64,000 nt of DNA, taken from the NCBI GenBank assembly GCA_963751355.1, contig CAVVVS010000077.1, forward strand, positions 1 through 64,000. Direction: 5' to 3'. Shown piece by piece: positions 28,265 to 36,875 of the stretch (its first letter is position 1; every line of letters begins with the position of its first letter). The position numbers and the translations under genes are program-made. Under the pieces are notes generated by a model that had not been told where the DNA came from, did not search any database, and was given only the letters and a program-made list of their open reading frames with translations. Source of the DNA: an uncultured Ignavibacteriales bacterium. GTDB lineage: Bacteria; Bacteroidota; Ignavibacteria; Ignavibacteriales; Ignavibacteriaceae.

Positions 28265-28909
28265 ATGACATACGATAAAACTTATACCGAAGTAAAACAT
28301 GTATTCGGCACCGGACCTGAAAGGACGTTGGTAAGGTTTGTAAATAAAATTGATAAAACAAAACCGGTTTTGGATATTGGAGCCGGGCAGGGACGCAATG
28401 CAGTATATCTTGCCGCAGAAGGATTCTCTGTCGACGCCATTGATCCTTCAAGTATTGCGGTAAAAACAATCTCGAAAATATCAAAAGGAAAAAAATATAA
28501 TATTGCGGCTTATCAAGCTAGCTTCGATGATTTTACCCCACAGCAGCTGCCCTATTCCGCAATTTTTATTTATGGTTTAATACAGATATTGGATTGGAAG
28601 TCCATTGATTTACTTGTAAATAAAGTTAACGAATGGACAAAAAAAGACAGTTTAATTTTTGTAACGTCTTTTTCAACAAAAGACGCCACGTTTAAAAAAT
28701 ACAGCAAAGAATGGAATAAAACGGGGAAAAATTCATTTAGTGATGATGAGGGTGATTGCAGAACATTTTTAATGCAGAATGAAATAGTCACATTTTTTAA
28801 GAATCATCGTATCCTCTACCATTGGGAAGGACTAGGTTCGAAACACCGGCACGGTAACAGTCCGGTGCAGGAGCATGCAATGATAGAATTAGTCGCACAA
28901 AAAAATTAA
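28265..28909 (+). CDS. Class I SAM-dependent methyltransferase (TehB-like)
   Basis: LDIGAGQGRNAVYLAAEGFSVDAIDPS. Confidence 0.65.
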   Translation: MTYDKTYTEVKHVFGTGPERTLVRFVNKIDKTKPVLDIGAGQGRNAVYLAAEGFSVDAIDPSSIAVKTISKISKGKKYNIAAYQASFDDFTPQQLPYSAIFIYGLIQILDWKSIDLLVNKVNEWTKKDSLIFVTSFSTKDATFKKYSKEWNKTGKNSFSDDEGDCRTFLMQNEIVTFFKNHRILYHWEGLGSKHRHGNSPVQEHAMIELVAQKN

Positions 28910-28973
28910 CACGTGAATTTGAATCATAATCATGATTACTCCGCTTTTTATCTTACCCCAAAAACTTTCCTTA

Positions 28974-29272
28974 TTTAAAGAATTTCCCATTTTTTATTTG
29001 CTATAATCAATTAAAAAATATAGTTTTATAAATGTTTTGTATAATTGGGGTACGCCTATATGATTTTTGCATGTCGATATTTCTAATTATGCTTCATGCC
29101 CAAATTTGTATGATAACAATTTTAATTGATTACTAATACATCTCAAAATTCCCGACAGCTGAGTTTAGTGCTGAAGCAATTTAGAATTTTTCTCGTTTGA
29201 GGAATATTTCCTCTATATAAGTAATGATCTTAAAGGTAATTGAGAACTTAATACTATGTTAGGCATTAGCAA
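28974..29272 (+). repeat. Direct repeat copy 1 (about 300 bp including a 47-bp insertion), containing the promoter and ATG of 29256..30182
   Basis: About 95% identical to 32224-32478. It includes TTTTTATTTGCTATAATCAATTAAAAAATATAG...AATACTATGTTA. Confidence 0.85.
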
Positions 29273-30182
29273 AGAAAGAATATTAGTGAGTAAAAGAACT
29301 CATATTATATTAATTTCAATATTTATATCTTTATCGACTTTTTCTACTATTTACTCACAAAAAAAAGATTTTTTCCCATTATCAGTCGGCAATGAAGTAC
29401 ATTATTCATATTTTGTAGAGTATGCATCATATAAGAGCCCTCTTTATCCAGCAGAAAGTCATGATGATTTTAGTAAAGATAGCGGAGAAGTAGCTTATAA
29501 ATTTATAGATTCAACTCTTCTAAATGATACCACAGTAGTATGGACTATCCGTGAAATTCGCGATTTATTTTCATTTCAGTGGCATCTAGATTCTTTAGGT
29601 GTGAGGGATACAGTTACTTATAAAAAAATAGATAGTGCAGAATATCCATTGTATGAATATACTTCTGGATTACATGGTTTATATGCTTATATGCTTGTAT
29701 TCAATTTTTCTGGTAAAGTATATAGATATTCTGATACTGTTGCAGACAGTATTGTTTATAATTTACAATCAGTCCCTTATACTTTTGTAAAAAACATTGG
29801 GCTAACAAAAATATTGTATTCAAACTCTTTCGTAGGTAATTTTTCCTATGAAAATTATACTAAGAAAATTACACTTATAAGAGATATTACAAATATAGAT
29901 TCAAGAAACATTAAACAATATCGCTATTACTTGCGACAAAATTATCCTAATCCGTTTAATCCAACGACTACAATTGAATATTCAATTCCCAAAACAAGTT
30001 TTGTTAGCATAGAAGTATACGACTTCTTAGGAAAGAAGGTTGCCGCATTGGTAAATGAAGTAAAAAAAGAAGGAGATTATAAAGTAAAATTTAATGCATC
30101 ATTTCTTTCAAGTGGGATATATTTCTACAGAATGCAAGCTGGAAATTTTGTTGAGACTAAAAAATTAATTTTATTGAAATAG
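29256..30182 (+). CDS. Secreted protein with a T9SS (Por) C-terminal sorting domain
   Basis: The C-terminus YPNPFNPTTTIEYSIP...GIYFYRMQAG matches the TIGR04183 CTD. N-terminal signal peptide. Confidence 0.8.
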   Translation: MLGISKERILVSKRTHIILISIFISLSTFSTIYSQKKDFFPLSVGNEVHYSYFVEYASYKSPLYPAESHDDFSKDSGEVAYKFIDSTLLNDTTVVWTIREIRDLFSFQWHLDSLGVRDTVTYKKIDSAEYPLYEYTSGLHGLYAYMLVFNFSGKVYRYSDTVADSIVYNLQSVPYTFVKNIGLTKILYSNSFVGNFSYENYTKKITLIRDITNIDSRNIKQYRYYLRQNYPNPFNPTTTIEYSIPKTSFVSIEVYDFLGKKVAALVNEVKKEGDYKVKFNASFLSSGIYFYRMQAGNFVETKKLILLK

Positions 30183-30303
30183 TATCAAATGCATAACCAT
30201 CGGCTCGTGTGCCTTGAAGCAGCTATAGACAGCGCCAAAAATTTGTATGAAAAAAGAGGGGCAATGTTTCCGGAAATGAATATATAATGATATTTTCCCC
30301 TCT

Positions 30304-30654
30304 CTAATTCATCGGTTTTATTTTACCGGTCACATCAATTAAAACCGGGTAGCCTTCCAGTGTTTTGGGAATTTTTTTCTCCAGTGCCTTTGATTTTTTT
30401 TCAACCATTACTTTAATGCATGGTTTCCCGTCGTCTGTCTCGCCCTGGTAAATACCCACAACACCGGCTATTGACATTATTTCATTTGAGTGTTTTTCAA
30501 TAACTTCTTTTATTGAAGGTTTGGTCATTGGATTTTTTTCGTTATTATTTTTTGTTGAACTGCACTGCCAAGTATTTAGAGGGAGAAATAATATGAAAAA
30601 TATTAATAGGATACTTTTTAGCTTTTTGAACAGTATAAAATAATTTTTCCCCAT
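30304..30654 (-). CDS. Free-standing paralog of the protease N-terminal pro-region (lipoprotein)
   Basis: Residues about 50-126 align with residues about 50-125 of 30734..31960 (…GVVGI.QG.TDDGKPCIKV…GKIKPM versus …GVIGTAIGLDENGKPAILV…GEIKPM). The likely start is the ATG at 30654 (MGKNYF...), not the GTG at 30684. Confidence 0.6.
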   Translation of the reverse strand: MGKNYFILFKKLKSILLIFFILFLPLNTWQCSSTKNNNEKNPMTKPSIKEVIEKHSNEIMSIAGVVGIYQGETDDGKPCIKVMVEKKSKALEKKIPKTLEGYPVLIDVTGKIKPMN

Positions 30655-30684
30655 AAAGTTTTTAACAAATTCTAAAATAAACAC

Positions 30685-30709
30685 AACCCGCCTCTATCCG
30701 AAGCGGGTT
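30685..30709 (-). terminator. Rho-independent terminator after the protease gene
   Basis: Minus-strand hairpin AACCCGC-(11 nt)-GCGGGTT followed by GTGTTTATTTT, 25 nt after the stop at 30734. Confidence 0.55.
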
Positions 30710-30733
30710 ATATAAAATGATAAATCTTATTAT

Positions 30734-31960
30734 CTATTTACCGACCATTGTAAAAGTTCCGCCCAGGTGGCTGGAATAATAATTCAAAACATCATTAATA
30801 GGATTAGCAATTGCAGCGGTTTTGCTGCCTGCGAAAAGCAAACCAACTGCTTTAGGATTTGAACTGACATTTTCAACCATCAAAGAACCTGAATCACCGG
30901 AATTTAAGAATTTACTTCCTTTATTACCCACTACAATTTGACCGGTATAAGTTTGAGTAAAAGCAGTTGAACCACCGCACTCGTCTTCGTAGGAAACACT
31001 TACGGTAGCATTCAATCCAATTACCTTGCTGGTGCTTAATCCGGTTGTTCTTCCGCTTTTTTTAACCGGTTGGTTTATATAAGCAGCTGCGGTGGATTTG
31101 GAAATTGTACCTATCTCCAATATCGAACCGGAAGCATCAACCATACCCGGTATAATCTGAGCAATACCGGCATCAACATTTACAGAACTTCTTGTACTTG
31201 CGTTTGTAAGACTTCCGCCACCGGCAATTAAATTACCAACCTCTTGTGCATTCGTCGGATCACAATTTATATCTACTAAACCCGGCTGAATGACAGGATC
31301 ACCCGCAGTTGCTACTTTATTATTTCCGCCGGGTACAATGTCGCCGTATAAAACATGAAAATTACTTAAAATATAATCATTTGTTCCATCGGTAATTAAA
31401 GAACCTAGAGTTCCGCTGCAGCAATAACCGTTTGCAGCATCATATTCCCATCCACCCGATGTTCCTAATTGAATCGGCGGAGTTTGAATTGCGGTGTGGC
31501 TTACTGCAGGACCTGTATTTCCGCCGCCGCCTTTACCGCCGCCGCCGCCCGGTTTTCCTTTAGCGAGCTGCATCGGTTTTATTTCACCCGATACATAAAC
31601 TTTTACGGGCACATTTTCGAGTTGAGTCGGGATTGGTGCAGGCTGACCTTTAGCTAATGCTTGTGCTAAAATATCGGTTTTGGTTAAAACCAGAATTGCC
31701 GGTTTACCGTTTTCATCTAAGCCGATTGCAGTACCTATTACACCCTGTTTCTGCATTAATTCCGGTGTATACTTCTTCTGTACAGGTACTAAAGCTTTAA
31801 TTTGAGGATTATTCATCGACAATACAGCCTGCTGCTCGGAACTAACCGGATTATTGCTTTTTGTTGGATTGCCGCAGCTTACCCATATAATAGTAAAAAC
31901 GGCTATCAAAAAAGATGAGATTAAAATTTTTCTATAGCGGTAAAAAAACGAATGCTTCAT
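30734..31960 (-). CDS. Secreted S1-family (alpha-lytic/streptogrisin-like) serine protease with an N-terminal pro-region and a Gly-rich linker
   Basis: Lipobox VSCGN. Catalytic-triad-like motifs ILSNFHVL (His), GDSGS (Ser) and CCSGTLG. Poly-Gly linker (GKPGGGGGKGGGGN). Confidence 0.6.
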   Translation of the reverse strand: MKHSFFYRYRKILISSFLIAVFTIIWVSCGNPTKSNNPVSSEQQAVLSMNNPQIKALVPVQKKYTPELMQKQGVIGTAIGLDENGKPAILVLTKTDILAQALAKGQPAPIPTQLENVPVKVYVSGEIKPMQLAKGKPGGGGGKGGGGNTGPAVSHTAIQTPPIQLGTSGGWEYDAANGYCCSGTLGSLITDGTNDYILSNFHVLYGDIVPGGNNKVATAGDPVIQPGLVDINCDPTNAQEVGNLIAGGGSLTNASTRSSVNVDAGIAQIIPGMVDASGSILEIGTISKSTAAAYINQPVKKSGRTTGLSTSKVIGLNATVSVSYEDECGGSTAFTQTYTGQIVVGNKGSKFLNSGDSGSLMVENVSSNPKAVGLLFAGSKTAAIANPINDVLNYYSSHLGGTFTMVGK

Positions 31961-32223
31961 ATGTAGCCCCCGGAAAATTAGTTGATAAATTTTACAATTG
32001 TGTAGAATGAATAATAATTGTTCGATATTATTGAATTTTTTTTATTAAAGCAAGCATTTTATTTACTGGAGTGACGTGCATAATAATAGATGAGTTTTAA
32101 AAACTCTGCAGAAAAACTTTTACTTTCCGGGCGGCGGTTAATTTATAACAAAAATAATTATAAGAATTGTTTCAGAATTGATAGAATTTTTACATACCGG
32201 CATTTTTAAAGAGTTAATATATG

Positions 32224-32478
32224 CTTTAAAAATTCTCACTTTTTATTTGCTATAATCAATTAAAAAATATAGTTTTATAAATGTTTTGTATAATTGGGGT
32301 ACGCCTATATGATTTTTGCATGTCGATATTTCTAATTATGCTTTAAGCCCAAAATTCCCGACAGCTGAGTTTAGTGCTGAAGCAATTTAGAATTTTTCTT
32401 GTTTGAGAAATATTTCTTCTATATAAGGAATGATTTTAAAGGTAATTGAGAACTTAATACTATGTTATGTTTACTAAA
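32224..32478 (+). repeat. Direct repeat copy 2, located immediately upstream of 32491..34410
   Basis: See copy 1. It lacks the 47-bp segment and retains a vestigial ATGTTA start. Confidence 0.85.
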
Positions 32479-32490
32479 AGGTAACAGAAT

Positions 32491-34410
32491 ATGAAAAGAT
32501 TATTTTCTCCACCATATGAAGAATTAGAAAATCTGAGAACTAAGTTAGAACCTGGTGAAAAGGCTGTCATTAAATTTTTTCATAAACACTTACCTGATTC
32601 TTGGGAAATATATATCCAGCCCCATCTAAACGGATTACGTCCTGACTTAGTATTATTGAACCCTAAAATTGGTATTGCAGTATATGAAATAAAAGACTGG
32701 GATTTAAACTCTCTTAACTATTATATCAAAGAAAAAGATGATACTGCTCCAGAACTCTGGGCATCAAAAAATGGGAAACACTTCTCATTACAGAAAGAAA
32801 ATCCTATTGAAAAAATATTCAGATACAAACAAGAAATATTCGATTTATATTGTCCAAGGATTGATAACAAGGCTGGATATGCAGTAATAACAGCGGGTGT
32901 AATTTTTCCGTTTGCTGATGAAAAGAAGTTAAAAGGACTTTTTAATCTTTCTCGAGCCTACAGAAAAATGGATAAATTTGAAAATTATTATCCTTTGATA
33001 GGTCAACAAACTTTTGATGGAAATAATATTAAATCGGTTTTTTCTGCTTCTACATATTCATCCTCTAAATATATGAACATTAATCTGGCAAAAGATTTAA
33101 GAAATTGGCTCATTGAACCTGATTTTGCAGCAACACAAAGGATATCGGTTGAAAATGATTTAGATAAAGAACAAAGGAAATATGTAGTTGGAAATGATGC
33201 AAGAACTAAATCTGGTTTCAGACGAATTAAAGGACCTGCTGGCTCCGGAAAATCACTAGTACTAGGAGCTAGAGCATCTCAACTAATTTCAGAAGGTAAA
33301 AAGGTGCTTGTTGTAACCTTCAATATTACTTTGCTACATTATTTAATGGACATAGCAGTTCGCTACCCACACGGTAGTGCAAACACTCGTGAGGATATAA
33401 CTTGGTTAAATTTTCATTTCTTATGTAAAAGAATTTGCTTGGAAAGTGGTTTTGAAAAAGAATATAAAGAACTTTGGAAAAACAATTTTGATTTAGAAGA
33501 TGTATTTCTTGACCCTAGTTTTTCAAGTGATAATTTTACAAATAATACCTTGACAAATGAATTGCCTGTATTAGTTGACAGAATATTATCTAATCATCCT
33601 AACAATTTTTTGAATAAATATGACGCTATCCTTGTAGATGAGGGACAAGACTTTTTACCTCATTGGTGGGCAATTCTTCGAAAACTTTGTAAAACTGATG
33701 GTGAAAAGTTACTTGTAGCCGATTCAACACAAGATATTTATGGAACAGCAAAATCCTGGACGGATCAAGCAATGGATGGGGCTGGATTTCGTGGTGGTTT
33801 TGCTGAATTGAAAATAAGTTATAGAATGCCTCCTAAATTAATATTACTAGCAAGGGATTTTGCAGAAAAATTTCTTCCTAAAGATTCTATTGATTTGCCA
33901 TTAGCACCACAAATTGAATTGGAACTATACCCTTGCAAACTTAAGTGGATTCAAACAACAAAAGAATTGTCTGAAGAAATTTGCAAAGAAGAAATTCTAA
34001 AAATGGCACAATCGGCTGATCCTATTTTATTATCGATACCCGATATTACTTTTTTGACAAACAGTTTAACATTTGGGAAAAAGGTTTCAGAAAAATTAGA
34101 AAAATATAATGTGAATGTATTGCACACTTTTGGTGATGATAGCCAAGATACTAGAAGAAGAAAAATAGGTTTTTATATGGGTGATGCAAAAATCAAAGCT
34201 ACTACTCTTCATAGTTTTAAAGGTTGGGAAAGTAGAGCCATTGTTATTTATTTGGGTCACAAGTATGACATTAAATCTATGTTTCTTGCTTATACTGGTA
34301 TGACAAGATTAAAGAGACATTTAGAATCAAGTTTTTTAACTATAGTCTGTGCAATACCTGAATTAAAATCTTATGGAAATTTGTGGGATGAATTTGAAAT
34401 ACGAACGTAA
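32491..34410 (+). CDS. NERD-domain nuclease fused to a UvrD/SF1-like helicase-ATPase (standalone)
   Basis: N-terminal NERD (KAVIKFFHKHL...YIQPHLNGLRPDLVLLNPKIGIAVYEIKDW). Walker A (GPAGSGKS), Walker B (ILVDEGQDF) and UvrD_C-like (TLHSFKGWE). Confidence 0.7.
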   Translation: MKRLFSPPYEELENLRTKLEPGEKAVIKFFHKHLPDSWEIYIQPHLNGLRPDLVLLNPKIGIAVYEIKDWDLNSLNYYIKEKDDTAPELWASKNGKHFSLQKENPIEKIFRYKQEIFDLYCPRIDNKAGYAVITAGVIFPFADEKKLKGLFNLSRAYRKMDKFENYYPLIGQQTFDGNNIKSVFSASTYSSSKYMNINLAKDLRNWLIEPDFAATQRISVENDLDKEQRKYVVGNDARTKSGFRRIKGPAGSGKSLVLGARASQLISEGKKVLVVTFNITLLHYLMDIAVRYPHGSANTREDITWLNFHFLCKRICLESGFEKEYKELWKNNFDLEDVFLDPSFSSDNFTNNTLTNELPVLVDRILSNHPNNFLNKYDAILVDEGQDFLPHWWAILRKLCKTDGEKLLVADSTQDIYGTAKSWTDQAMDGAGFRGGFAELKISYRMPPKLILLARDFAEKFLPKDSIDLPLAPQIELELYPCKLKWIQTTKELSEEICKEEILKMAQSADPILLSIPDITFLTNSLTFGKKVSEKLEKYNVNVLHTFGDDSQDTRRRKIGFYMGDAKIKATTLHSFKGWESRAIVIYLGHKYDIKSMFLAYTGMTRLKRHLESSFLTIVCAIPELKSYGNLWDEFEIRT

Positions 34411-34633
34411 ACATAATAACCGGCTCAACCAACCGCACTTTCGAGCTCGGCGAATTTAGGGGGTGAGATAAGCCAAATAAAAATTGCACTAAGTTATATA
34501 TTTATTATTTAGAAATGGCAATGATATTAATTACTAGAATACCACCTAAATTTTTAGATTAGTCATTCTGTTAATAAATAAAATTAATTCATTTTTCAAT
34601 TTCCGAAATAAAATTATAAAAATAGGGGTAATC

Positions 34634-35185
34634 ATGAATCCAATAAACAAAATTTTTATTGCTTTGTATTTATTTTTGACTCTTGTTCCAATATTGCCGA
34701 CTAACGGAATTAGCTATGCACAAGAAGTAAAATCATCAACCGCAGAACGTGACACGCTATTATCTGTTGCCCGGCAGTATATTCATAATGTAAGATTTTG
34801 TGCATTGATCACTATCGATAGTTCCGGGTATCCTCATGCAAGAACAATGGATCCATTTCAGCCGGATGAAAACATGATCGTTTGGTTTGGTACAAATCGC
34901 AATAGCAGAAAAGTAAAGGAAATCCGAAATAATCCAAATGTAACTCTTTATTATACGGGCAATAAAGGAGAAGGCTATGTGTCAATCATTGGTACTGCCG
35001 GTCTAGTTGATGATCCAAAGATAAAAGATAGTCTATGGAAAGATGAATGGGCGAAGCTTTACAAGGATCAAAAACAAAACTATCTTCTTATTAAAGTAGT
35101 TCCTAAGAAACTTGAGATACTTAATTTAAGGCATGGTATCGCAGGTAATAAAGAAACATGGGAAACACCGTTTGTTAGTTTTTAA
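34634..35185 (+). CDS. Pyridoxamine 5'-phosphate oxidase-like FMN-binding split-barrel protein (GSP26-like) with a signal peptide
   Basis: FCALITIDSSGYPHARTMDPF...IVWFGTNRNSRKVKEIRNNPNVTLYY. Confidence 0.6.
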   Translation: MNPINKIFIALYLFLTLVPILPTNGISYAQEVKSSTAERDTLLSVARQYIHNVRFCALITIDSSGYPHARTMDPFQPDENMIVWFGTNRNSRKVKEIRNNPNVTLYYTGNKGEGYVSIIGTAGLVDDPKIKDSLWKDEWAKLYKDQKQNYLLIKVVPKKLEILNLRHGIAGNKETWETPFVSF

Positions 35186-36524: not shown

Positions 36525-36875
36525 GAGTATTAATTCGTTAAAGCAATATAATCCATCCAGGTAACTTTGAGTTTAACTTGCTATAATCGTTTAAATTATA
36601 TAATTTTAACATTGCTACGATAATTCGGGAATGAAAATCTACTTTATACCTATCGACAATTTTTTTATATAATCACTTAGAATATTAAAATAATATTAAT
36701 GGCTTCCGCCGTTTATGAGTACAAAAATAATTTGTTGCATTATTGAAAAAACTCAGATCGAAATTGAATGTATCTTTAAAATTATTGTCCAACTTTTCAC
36801 TTGACAAATGTTCTGAAGTGATTCTCTCAAACAAAACTATTTATCTTTGTAACCATTCAAAGTCCAGGGGCATTT

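Follow-up and report, generated by a model that had tools for sequence, protein, structure and literature searches.

The locus and its direct repeat

The 64,000-nt stretch analyzed here (the window) contains a direct repeat, R, whose two copies, R1 and R2, lie on the forward strand immediately upstream of a T9SS-CTD protein gene and of a NERD-UvrD helicase gene, respectively. Between them, downstream of the T9SS-CTD gene, lie two genes read from the opposite strand, orf126 and a serine-protease-like gene; orf126 is a paralogue of this protease's pro-region, and the protease gene is transcribed away from R2. The features of the locus are collected in Table 1.

Table 1. Coordinates of the repeat copies, cassettes and associated features in the window
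Feature	Position	Strand	Description
Repeat copy R1	28974..29258	+	285 nt, GC 0.26; last base is the G of ATG, followed by TTAGGC
Extended -10-like box TGCTATAAT, R1	28999..29007	+	Within the 105-nt invariant block; 257 nt upstream of ATG 29256
43-bp R1-only segment	29101..29143	+	MAFFT gap columns 162-204
T9SS-CTD gene cassette	29259..30246	+	Starts TTAGGC; ORF 29256/29286-30182; Pfam Por_Secre_tail
T9SS cassette truncated attC	R'' box GCATAAC at 30191	+	~55 nt kept
orf126, protease pro-region paralogue	30304..30684	-	BLASTP 33% identity over 126 aa, E 1e-13
Serine-protease-like gene	30734..31960	-	Nal1_C (Pfam)
Repeat copy R2	32224..32464	+	241 nt, GC 0.26; last base is the G of ATG, followed by TTATGT
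Extended -10-like box TGCTATAAT, R2	32248..32256	+	243 nt upstream of the helicase ATG
uORF MLCLLKGNRI*	32462..32494	+	10 codons; starts at the R2 ATG; created by the junction
NERD-UvrD helicase gene cassette	32465..34458	+	Starts TTATGTTTAC; ORF 32491-34410; Pfam NERD and UvrD
Helicase attC, 5' part	34407-34458	+	GTAAACATAAtAACCGGCTC...; attC profile match 34411-34460, E 1e-3
Arm of palindromic insert M, TTTAGGGGGTGAGATAAG	34455..34472	+	Interrupts the helicase attC
Partial diverged third copy of R	36572..36660	+	First ~90 nt of R; blastn E 3.6e-4, nhmmer E 0.6

Both copies of the repeat, which spans about 240-285 bp, are in the same orientation, and their alignment runs from about 28974 to 29261 and from about 32224 to 32467. 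Outside a single indel they differ at 7 of 229 aligned positions (96.9% identity), and the 5' 105 nt are 100% identical. The two-copy direct repeat described in an earlier, sequence-only reading of this DNA is thus real, and an independent assembly agrees. That reading had given the indel as 47 bp (29103-29150); alignment and the spacing of the copies on its two sides (3249 and 3206 in the repeat search) both yield 43 bp, a segment flanked by CAAA microhomology, so that its placement may shift by a few bases. Searches with blastn and nhmmer found no further full copy in the 64-kb window, and R had no homologue in any public collection searched. The partial third copy, which carries an identical TTGCTATAATC, is situated 297 nt upstream of the ATG of orf196, a host-like gene.

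Analysis of base composition separated the genes of the locus into two groups. Against a window GC of 0.358 and a GC3 of 0.324 +/- 0.047, the T9SS-CTD gene (GC 0.283, GC3 0.178, z -3.1) and the helicase gene (GC3 0.200, z -2.7) are compositionally foreign, whereas orf126 (GC3 0.331) and the protease gene (GC 0.416, GC3 0.313) are host-like. The latter two look native, and orf126 lies between the repeats, outside any cassette.

Two genes with the organization of integron cassettes

A homologue of the T9SS-CTD protein with 60% identity, P0122, is encoded by a cassette in two other loci, L089 and L090, where it stands behind two different attCs. Homology to these cassettes opens at GTTAGGCA, exactly at the end of R1; the TTAGGCA start follows a different attC in each of the two loci and R1 in the window. 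On the other side, the attC start located 3' of the T9SS stop codon aligns with the attC starts of L089 and L090, and the cassette start is complementary to its own R'' at 10 of 12 bases. Beyond this truncated attC comes the terminator region of orf126, not the continuation of an interrupted target.

The helicase, recognized by PADLOC as PDLC01087 'NERD+UvrD' (E 7.6e-145), makes its unit a candidate defence cassette. Homologues at 84-95% identity are found in L084, L085, L093 and L095, preceded by a different attC-type site in each of these four loci, and the homology always opens at the same cassette start, 26 nt 5' of the ATG, which is the end of R2. At the stop codon, GTAAACATAA (34407-34416) is the reverse complement of the helicase cassette start and is followed by a 3-nt insertion. 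The attC profile match at this place covers positions 3-53 of ~189, and only one truncated attC in the window reached significance with the profile. The M arm matches, at 18 of 18 positions, an arm of a ~90-nt insert located at the same attC position in cassette 8 of L084; beyond it, the 3' half of the helicase attC is absent.

In both cases, therefore, a TTRRRY start after a G keeps a constant boundary while the upstream neighbour changes, and the start of R'' is complementary to the first bases of its own cassette. These comparisons demonstrate that the T9SS-CTD gene is an integron cassette, and the same holds for the NERD-UvrD gene. A complete foldable attC (R''-L''...L'-R') is absent from both: the first ~50 nt are left and no 3' arm was found. 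Both units are accordingly classed here as apparent immobilized cassette remnants, not as mobile cassettes.

The related loci are true integrons, and complete integrons are known in Ignavibacteriae (PMC9024848). L084 contains at least 17 cassettes on the same strand, separated by attC repeats of 174-318 nt with AT-rich centres. Of 16 cassettes tested there, 12 begin with 12 nt that agree, at 10-12 of these 12 positions, with the reverse-complemented start of their own attC; the control comparison with other attCs gave about 6 of 12. L089 carries an integron integrase (TIGR02249, 424 bits versus a cutoff of 265), then an AT-rich attI region of ~250 nt, then cassettes, which is the order of a complete integron. 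In L093, the helicase cassette belongs to a CALIN of three cassettes.

Both repeat copies end at the cassette crossover

The T9SS cassette begins at the nucleotide directly after R1, and the helicase cassette at the one directly after R2. In either copy the last base is the G of G|TT, the canonical crossover of integrons, and TTAGGC and TTATGT are joined to the same base of R. The cassette crossover found at the repeat ends was defined independently in six other loci. Since both copies end where a cassette begins, R looks like a docking arm used twice and not like the two ends of one insert.

On balance, we lean towards reading R as the upstream, non-attC arm of an integron-type junction, present twice and fused at G|TT to two different horizontally acquired cassettes. 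As to its nature, an attI-like or attG-like, promoter-bearing recombination arm is the best reading. Both cassettes would have been joined to R by an integron integrase whose gene lies elsewhere or has since disappeared; R may have served either as an attI-like site or as one of the genomic 'attG' hotspots reported by Loot et al. The invariant 5' block with TGCTATAAT would then provide a promoter for the promoterless cassettes through a leader of ~240-290 nt, and loss of the attC 3' halves would have frozen both cassettes in place. Possible routes to the duplication of R include the integrase- or RecA-mediated insertion of an R-carrying circle, or the formation and resolution of a cointegrate. 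As both cassettes have truncated attCs, additional deletion or rearrangement steps are required.

Alternative origins of the repeat

R might instead belong to a host family of promoter-leader sequences, duplicated by homologous recombination or gene conversion, its contact with cassettes being meaningless. The partial third copy upstream of host-like orf196 fits such a family, as do the GC of R (0.26), which resembles that of other non-coding DNA in the window (0.29), and the perfectly identical 105-nt block, which suggests gene conversion. We nevertheless regard this origin as unlikely: in front of two unrelated cassettes, R breaks off in both copies at one and the same base, the G of G|TT, and the cassette boundaries were set by comparison with other genomes. 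An ordinary duplication would not predict such precision.

The sequence-only reading had proposed a single AT-rich insert of 3.2 kb, a unit inserted or duplicated by promoter capture or by site-specific integration with target duplication, for which the coincidence with cassette boundaries would be incidental. Campbell-type integration does give a direct repeat, here around 3.2 kb, and the T9SS-CTD gene within the bracket is AT-rich. However, the interval 29259-32223 has a GC typical of the window (0.346 versus 0.358), and the T9SS-CTD gene is the only outlier among intervening genes said to be more AT-rich than their flanks. Because orf126 and the protease gene are host-like, down to their GC3, the AT-rich insert fails as a description: the bracket holds one foreign cassette and two host-like genes, and the helicase, the second compositionally foreign gene, lies outside it. 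Nor would a generic insertion predict that both repeat ends fall on an exact cassette crossover. A search of the 64 kb with the L089 integrase (tblastn, best E 3.3) revealed no integron integrase or remnant, no Phage_integrase domain was present in the 30 ORFs scanned with Pfam, and the window has no tRNA. The placement of R upstream of both genes and the appeal to site-specific recombination survive from this proposal, while the integration of one insert with a duplicated target does not, and we consider the latter quite improbable. We also rejected R1 and R2 as attL and attR of an integrative element, given that the interval consists of the T9SS cargo, the pro-region paralogue and the protease, has no integrase, and lies in a window with no tRNA.

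A further possibility is an attC of unusual length with R as its 3' half, the locus being an array fragment or a set of circularly permuted cassettes. The inter-cassette repeats of L084 are indeed long (174-318 nt) with AT-rich centres, the order R, cassette, 5' attC part is that of a cassette circle opened within its attC, and an 11/13 match to the other M arm lies 14 nt to the left of R1. The pairing capacity of R argues against it. The best duplexes between its 3' arm and upstream sequence reached -12.0 and -15.1 kcal/mol, compared with -27 to -39 kcal/mol for real attC arms and -17.1 +/- 4.0 kcal/mol for random GTTA sites of the window. With the cassettes' own 5' attC parts (R''-L''), values of -13.6 and -7.6 kcal/mol were obtained, while the controls stood at about -31 kcal/mol (real sites) and about -10 to -11 kcal/mol (random sequence); in either direction the terminal arm thus pairs no better than random. 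The attC profile had no match in R, and R used as nhmmer query against the integron loci revealed nothing resembling the attC family. The inverted-repeat score of the flanks was not significant, being reached by 18 of 500 shuffles and by 9% of window 66-mers. We therefore consider a long attC very unlikely. R as an attC in its own right was likewise rejected, having neither a hairpin partner nor an attC profile match.

That the repeat is a repeat-induced loop or chimeric join is extremely improbable, even though the source is a metagenome-assembled contig and repeats of this size confuse short-read assemblers, since 7 substitutions and the 43-bp indel separate R1 from R2 and an independent short-read assembly (Logan, run ERR11523667) backs three edges and the R2-helicase junction. 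In that assembly, contigs L001, L002 and L003 break off at three of the repeat's four edges, in each case exactly 30 nt (k-1) inside shared sequence; L003 ends and L001 starts 30 nt inside R2, and L001 spans the junction with the helicase cassette. The R1-T9SS junction was also recovered, at ~98-99% identity, in L091, a contig assembled from another sample. An assembly artefact can thus be dismissed as the source of the repeat.

In the collections scanned, the neighbouring genes, including the protease gene, are singletons at 90% identity, and there was no relative close enough to show the empty site. Synteny with the nearest species stops at the efflux operon.

Comparison with known recombination sites

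Integron integrases are known to place cassettes outside att sites as well, in genomic DNA at positions with the consensus GWT (Loot et al., bioRxiv 10.1101/2022.09.11.507474). Such off-site cassettes are expressed when they land near a resident promoter, and their natural form is represented by SALINs and small CALINs (bioRxiv 10.1101/2022.09.11.507474). The present locus resembles this attG/SALIN situation in several respects: its cassettes reside in the chromosome with no nearby integrase, ordinary AT-rich, non-att genomic DNA is joined to them at a GWT-type G|TT triplet, and a promoter-like sequence upstream could express them. It differs in that the same arm of ~250 bp occurs twice and the same base serves two cassettes, in that both attCs are cut to ~50 nt, leaving neither unit detectable as a SALIN or CALIN, and in that the rest of the presumed target was not found after either cassette. 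Where an attG insertion should show a complete attC and then the interrupted target, we found the orf126 terminator region or the M-type palindrome arm. The same applies to a simple attI insertion, after which a full attC and then the remainder of the target would also be expected.

Compared with an attI site and its Pc promoter, R is similarly a non-hairpin, double-stranded site; on its 3' side it terminates in the G of G|TTRRRY, different cassettes are fused to that end, and its candidate promoter is likewise upstream of the junction. The attI region of L089 (~250 nt), the sole attI compared, is alike in size and AT-richness; it shows no sequence similarity to R. Unlike attI, R occurs in two copies instead of one, and the 64-kb window holds no adjoining integrase gene or remnant; an attI assignment thus lacks its defining neighbour. 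No homologue of R was detected beside any integrase.

A CALIN, as defined with IntegronFinder (PMC9024848), likewise consists of grouped cassettes in a chromosome and lacks an integrase. It comprises at least two recognizable attCs, whereas a single truncated attC is significant here, and native genes plus R, rather than attCs, separate the cassettes. Nor does the window, having no intI, contain a complete integron with intI, attI and array in one locus.

A single insertion site leaves the two copies of R unexplained. Cointegrates driven by the integrase were found to generate duplications in a study of veb1 (PMC3518468). This is a known way to duplicate segments that include att sites and may be considered a candidate route here; it was seen on multicopy plasmids with intI1 overexpressed.

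More speculatively, R could be an attI-like, promoter-bearing site that exists apart from the integrase gene, can be duplicated or moved, and recruits cassettes in trans, an 'orphan landing pad'. We hold this to be a long shot. If it were true, the cassette pool of an integron would be expressed from several satellite sites around the chromosome.

Promoter-like box, leader and start codons

Within the block that R1 and R2 share without a mismatch, both have a perfect extended -10 box (TGnTATAAT). The diverged third copy has kept this box too, about equally far from a start codon. The window holds 11 such -10-like boxes, versus 6.0 expected. The repeat had been read as a duplicated promoter, which the box in each copy supports; on the other hand, a sigma-70 scan detected no full plus-strand promoter in R, and it is not established which kind of promoter Ignavibacteria use. 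The related suggestion that both genes are under equivalent promoters is plausible to the extent that they share the same upstream promoter-like region. As for a structured RNA or leader, R had no Rfam match either at gathering thresholds or at E<=1, and it folds no better than shuffled sequence (z -0.17 and -0.50).

The ATG provided by R1 had been taken as the start of the T9SS-CTD gene. This ATG (29256) is in frame and would add 10 residues to the protein, but alignment with P0122 places the native start probably at GTG 29286.

In R2, the corresponding ATGTTA had been described as a vestige running into a stop codon. It does open a short reading frame, the 10-codon uORF. Since both copies end at the G|TT crossover, however, ATGTTA is the cassette junction itself and not a vestige, its ATG coming from R and its TTA being the first three bases of the TTRRRY cassette start. 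The TGA stop of the uORF overlaps the helicase ATG (ATGA).

Two cassette junctions at a direct repeat

The direct repeat R is present on the plus strand in two full copies, R1 ahead of a T9SS-CTD protein gene (the T9SS gene) and R2 ahead of a NERD-UvrD helicase gene. Alignment with MAFFT resolved R, from 5′ to 3′, into a ragged first ~15 nt, a 105-nt block in which R1 equals R2 throughout, a 43-bp segment exclusive to R1 (29101-29143) with CAAA on its flanks, and a last 124 nt with seven substitutions, none being found in the 5′ block. The R1-R2 spacings of 3249 and 3206, like the alignment, set the indel at 43 bp rather than the 47 bp given by the sequence-only reading. A mutation-free block beside a substituted 3′ half suggests either gene conversion or a constraint acting on the promoter block.

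The similarity between R1 and R2 ends directly after ATGTTA. This string had been taken for a vestige of a start codon, and actually consists of the repeat's ATG plus a TTA common to both TTRRRY cassette starts. R1|TTAGGC and R2|TTATGT are both junctions at G|TT, the integron crossover point, since cassette homology starts where R1 and R2 stop. Each unit runs from R through G|TT and a cassette ORF into ~50 nt of attC, the cassette recombination site; no recognisable attC 3′ half follows either cassette in the window.

Codon composition separates the cassettes from the genes they enclose. Compared with 53 ORFs of the window, GC3 is 0.178 for the T9SS gene (z -3.1) and 0.200 for the helicase gene (z -2.7), and the values for orf126 (0.331) and the protease gene (0.313) are window-typical. 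The single AT-rich 3.2-kb insert proposed earlier was not borne out, the bracketed interval as a whole having a GC content of 0.346 vs 0.358 for the window. GC3 and interval GC together show two separate foreign cassettes, each with a copy of R before it and with native-looking genes between them.

Features of the repeat locus and its surroundings
Feature	Position	Strand	Evidence	Context
RND efflux operon	ends 27465		Pfam	
129-aa ORF			Pfam gene order	between efflux operon and TehB-like methyltransferase
TehB-like methyltransferase	28265-28909		Pfam	upstream of R1
R1	~28974-29261	+	MAFFT alignment, repeat search	
T9SS gene (308 aa, C-terminal sorting domain)	29256-30182	+	Pfam	after R1
orf126 (126 aa)	30304-30684	-		between T9SS gene and protease
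Nal1_C serine-protease-like protein (408 aa)	30734-31960	-	Pfam	before R2
R2	~32224-32467	+	MAFFT alignment, repeat search	
NERD-UvrD helicase	32491-34410	+	Pfam	after R2
PNPOx-like protein, methyltransferases	34634-35185 (PNPOx-like)		Pfam gene order	after helicase

An assembly artefact was ruled out as the source of the repeat, given that R1 and R2 differ in sequence and other assemblies agree. For run ERR11523667, an independent Logan assembly has three contigs with a terminus exactly 30 nt (k-1, k=31) inside the shared sequence, at 29020, 32269 and 32438. The junction of R with the same T9SS gene recurs in L091, a 1,049-nt contig of a different sample, which includes the final 34 nt of R and is 98-99% identical. 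One of the Logan contigs, L003, also breaks at window position 29939, in the coding region of the T9SS sorting domain near the NYPNPFNP motif, a break probably caused by 31-mers common to other T9SS-CTD genes of the sample.

The helicase cassette

Helicase homologues with 83-95% identity were fetched with their surroundings, and these contexts differ completely from locus to locus, the gene standing after four different attC-type sites in L084, L085, L093 and L095. In every case, the match between the window and these homologues starts 26 nt ahead of the ATG with TTATGTTTAC, exactly the point where R2 stops (...ACTATG|TTATGTTTAC). At the stop codon of the window helicase gene lies GTAAACATAA, the inverse of the cassette start, and the ~50 nt that follow match an attC profile built from L084 (34411-34460, E 1e-3). 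This attC is cut by TTTAGGGGGTGAGATAAG, which agrees at 18/18 positions with one arm of a palindrome of ~90 nt inserted into the attC of another cassette, in L084, at the corresponding position. In R2 the terminal ATG begins a uORF of 10 codons, the end of which overlaps the helicase start in ATGA; this uORF is a junction by-product.

The contig that supplied the profile, L084 (L084:1-21920, ENA ERZ25039495 contig_18262), is Ignavibacteria-like and carries a long array of the sedentary integron type, in which at least 17 same-strand ORFs are separated by repeats of 174-318 nt that start with ...TAAC-CCGCGGCTCAAGG and end with ...GCCG|TTAKRY. As attC sites, these repeats are unusually long and highly conserved. 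When the 12-nt starts of 16 L084 cassettes were compared with the reverse complements of the repeat starts, 12 cassettes agreed with their own downstream repeat at 10-12/12 positions, vs ~6/12 for the repeats of other cassettes; the four lower-scoring cassettes look like cases of boundaries mis-registered in the automated extraction. Such complementarity between a start and its own repeat is the hallmark of cassettes and attCs in integrons.

With the PADLOC model 'NERD+UvrD' (PDLC01087) the helicase gives E 7.6e-145, making it a candidate anti-phage gene. NERD-UvrD travels alone, as the only gene of its integron cassette. Its 90% cluster comprises 10 members on varied contigs, and it was seen in five contexts besides the window. 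In L093 it belongs, like a BrnT toxin cassette, to a CALIN of three cassettes amid housekeeping genes; in L088, where IS elements surround it, the attC that usually precedes it is absent.

The T9SS cassette

P0122, a 60% homologue of the T9SS gene product, was found in two loci. In L089 a gene 1.4 kb upstream of it passes the integron-integrase model TIGR02249 (424 bits, cutoff 265); in L090, which the Logan assembly of the window's own run supplied, it stands behind an attC different from that in L089. The window, L089 and L090 are homologous from GTTAGGCA onward; what precedes it is unrelated in the three loci, being two different attCs and, in the window, R1. All three loci show the start of an attC after the T9SS stop codon (AAATGCATAACCATCGGCTC in the window, AATTGCCTAACCAG... 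in L089 and L090). In the window, this remnant leads into a hairpin, apparently the terminator of orf126, which is convergent. Alignment with P0122 places the native start of the T9SS gene probably at the GTG at 29286 and not at the terminal ATG of R, the presence of which in this ORF is likewise a junction by-product. The L084 cassettes include one for a T9SS-CTD/BNR protein, so cassettes with T9SS cargo appear to be common in this group.

Nature of the repeat

R behaves like attI, the integron platform site: it is not a hairpin, its last base is the crossover G, and different cassettes are joined to it. It could equally well be attG, a genomic secondary site. Insertion at attG outside integrons, with a GWT consensus, was described by Loot et al., who found that cassettes are expressed when near a resident promoter (bioRxiv 10.1101/2022.09.11.507474). 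Neither an integron integrase nor a remnant of one was detected in the 64-kb window or beside R.

Regarding expression, each copy of R holds a perfect extended -10 box, TGCTATAAT, within the invariant 105-nt block and 243-257 nt upstream of the first ATG. No third full copy was found within 64 kb by blastn or nhmmer, which returned only one further hit, partial and diverged and covering the first ~90 nt, at 36572-36660. The 11-mer TTGCTATAATC is identical in this partial copy and is its best-conserved element; the copy lies 297 nt upstream of orf196, an ORF of host-like composition without a Pfam match. A canonical sigma-70 promoter was rejected: the plus strand of R gave no match, the extended -10 box alone being found, and its -35 region is poor in a sigma-70 scan, the rules of which may not be those of Ignavibacteria. 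From this arrangement we infer that R would give transcription to two otherwise promoterless cassettes. That R is, beyond this, an integrase-independent, promoter-bearing landing pad seems to us rather improbable.

To account for two copies, a circle carrying R could have integrated to give R-X-R-Y, by RecA within R or by integrase at ATG|TT. Alternatively, the copies could stem from integrase-driven cointegrate formation and subsequent resolution, a process known to create duplications (PMC3518468). Every such route would need extra steps to yield truncated attCs and native genes between the copies.

R itself as an attC was discarded, as its terminal 30 nt plus core have no partner within 450 nt upstream, the duplexes reaching -12.0 and -15.1 kcal/mol compared with -27 to -39 for 14 true attC arms and -17.1 ± 4.0 kcal/mol for 223 random GTTA sites of the window. 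The attC profile had no match on R, and a half attC with circularly permuted cassettes was set aside because R does not pair with R''-L'' of either cassette. An attC 3′-like string, GGGCGGCGGTTA (~32125), pairs by chance with poly-Gly codons of the protease gene and its profile match is non-significant (E 32). A structured RNA or riboswitch-like leader (no Rfam hit at gathering thresholds or at E ≤ 1, and folding no better than that of shuffled sequence, z -0.17 and -0.50) and a tRNA-linked att site (the window is without tRNA) were likewise rejected.

R was not found in plasmids and phages (blastn, distant mode) or in the fetched loci (blastn against 83, nhmmer against nine of these). Exact searches with three of its 21-22-mers, which miss copies below ~95% identity, found none among GTDB species genomes (one of the three), JGI metagenomes (two) and IMG/VR (two).

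Relation to known systems

Integron cassettes have mostly been studied within arrays. Complete integrons are known in Ignavibacteriae (PMC9024848), stranded cassettes (SALINs, CALINs) and attG insertion have already been described (PMC9024848; bioRxiv 10.1101/2022.09.11.507474), and defence genes are known as cassettes; experimental proof of cassette escape to ordinary chromosomal sites is recent and comes from E. coli. The locus offers a natural example of cassettes outside arrays in a distant phylum, Ignavibacteriota. The same promoter-like leader precedes both cassette genes, one for a protein secreted by the T9SS and one for a candidate anti-phage helicase, and both cassettes lack the attC half needed for leaving again. 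Two traits of the locus are unusual: one ~250-bp non-att arm is duplicated, with the same base used by two unrelated cassettes, and the distal attC half has been lost in both, so that attC-based tools would not flag either unit.

If R is a preferred docking site, the domestication of cassettes can be directed to a site and coupled to a promoter, events of this sort escape annotation pipelines needing an intact attC, and fossil cassettes could be sought by means of similar repeats. If it is a mere duplicated host promoter, the locus reflects an ordinary rearrangement beside two stranded cassettes.

Neighbouring genes and host lineage

AcrB assigns the window to Ignavibacteriaceae. In the search for an empty site in relatives, the nearest genomes of other species, in which this protein is 83-86% identical, had only the efflux operon in common with the window, and the genes around R all remained singletons in the clustering of 15 billion proteins at 90% identity. 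In the nearest species, homologues of the PNPOx-like protein (43-47% identity) are encoded upstream of the efflux operon, at ~0.7 kb in L005 and L013 and at 4 kb in L018, which indicates that the region downstream of AcrB was rearranged in the window's lineage. The suggested paralogy of orf126 with the protease pro-region held (33% identity, E 1e-13): orf126 exists as a gene of its own, paralogous to the N-terminal pro-region of its protease neighbour. The short DNA repeats D3 and D5 still link both, indicating that an old local partial duplication made the pair.

Inserts in attC sites and mobile elements in arrays

The ~90-nt palindromic insert (AGGGGGTGAGATAA...TTATCTCACCCCCT) is found in two different attCs at corresponding positions, at L084:8896-8985 and, as one arm, at window 34455-34472, and may be an attC-targeting MITE. 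An 11/13 match to its opposite arm, 14 nt left of R1, is suggestive; the gapped inverted-repeat test was not significant. An inverted repeat around the whole 28930-34637 segment (pair I9 plus the M-arm match, M being this insert) was accordingly rejected. Weak matches to the other arm and the interior of the insert occur at the left edges of R1 (28945-28984) and R2 (32203-32219).

The complete integron at L089:7587-10000 has its integrase and cassettes on the same strand and an AT-rich attI region of ~250 nt, directly followed by a non-coding cassette of ~590 nt in two tandem copies and then the T9SS cassette. Its array also includes an IS110-family transposase. Group II intron reverse transcriptases (RVT_1 + GIIM) lie in or beside the cassette arrays of L085 (6531-8021) and L089 (13603-14910), and can be likened to those of group IIC introns, which are known to target attC.
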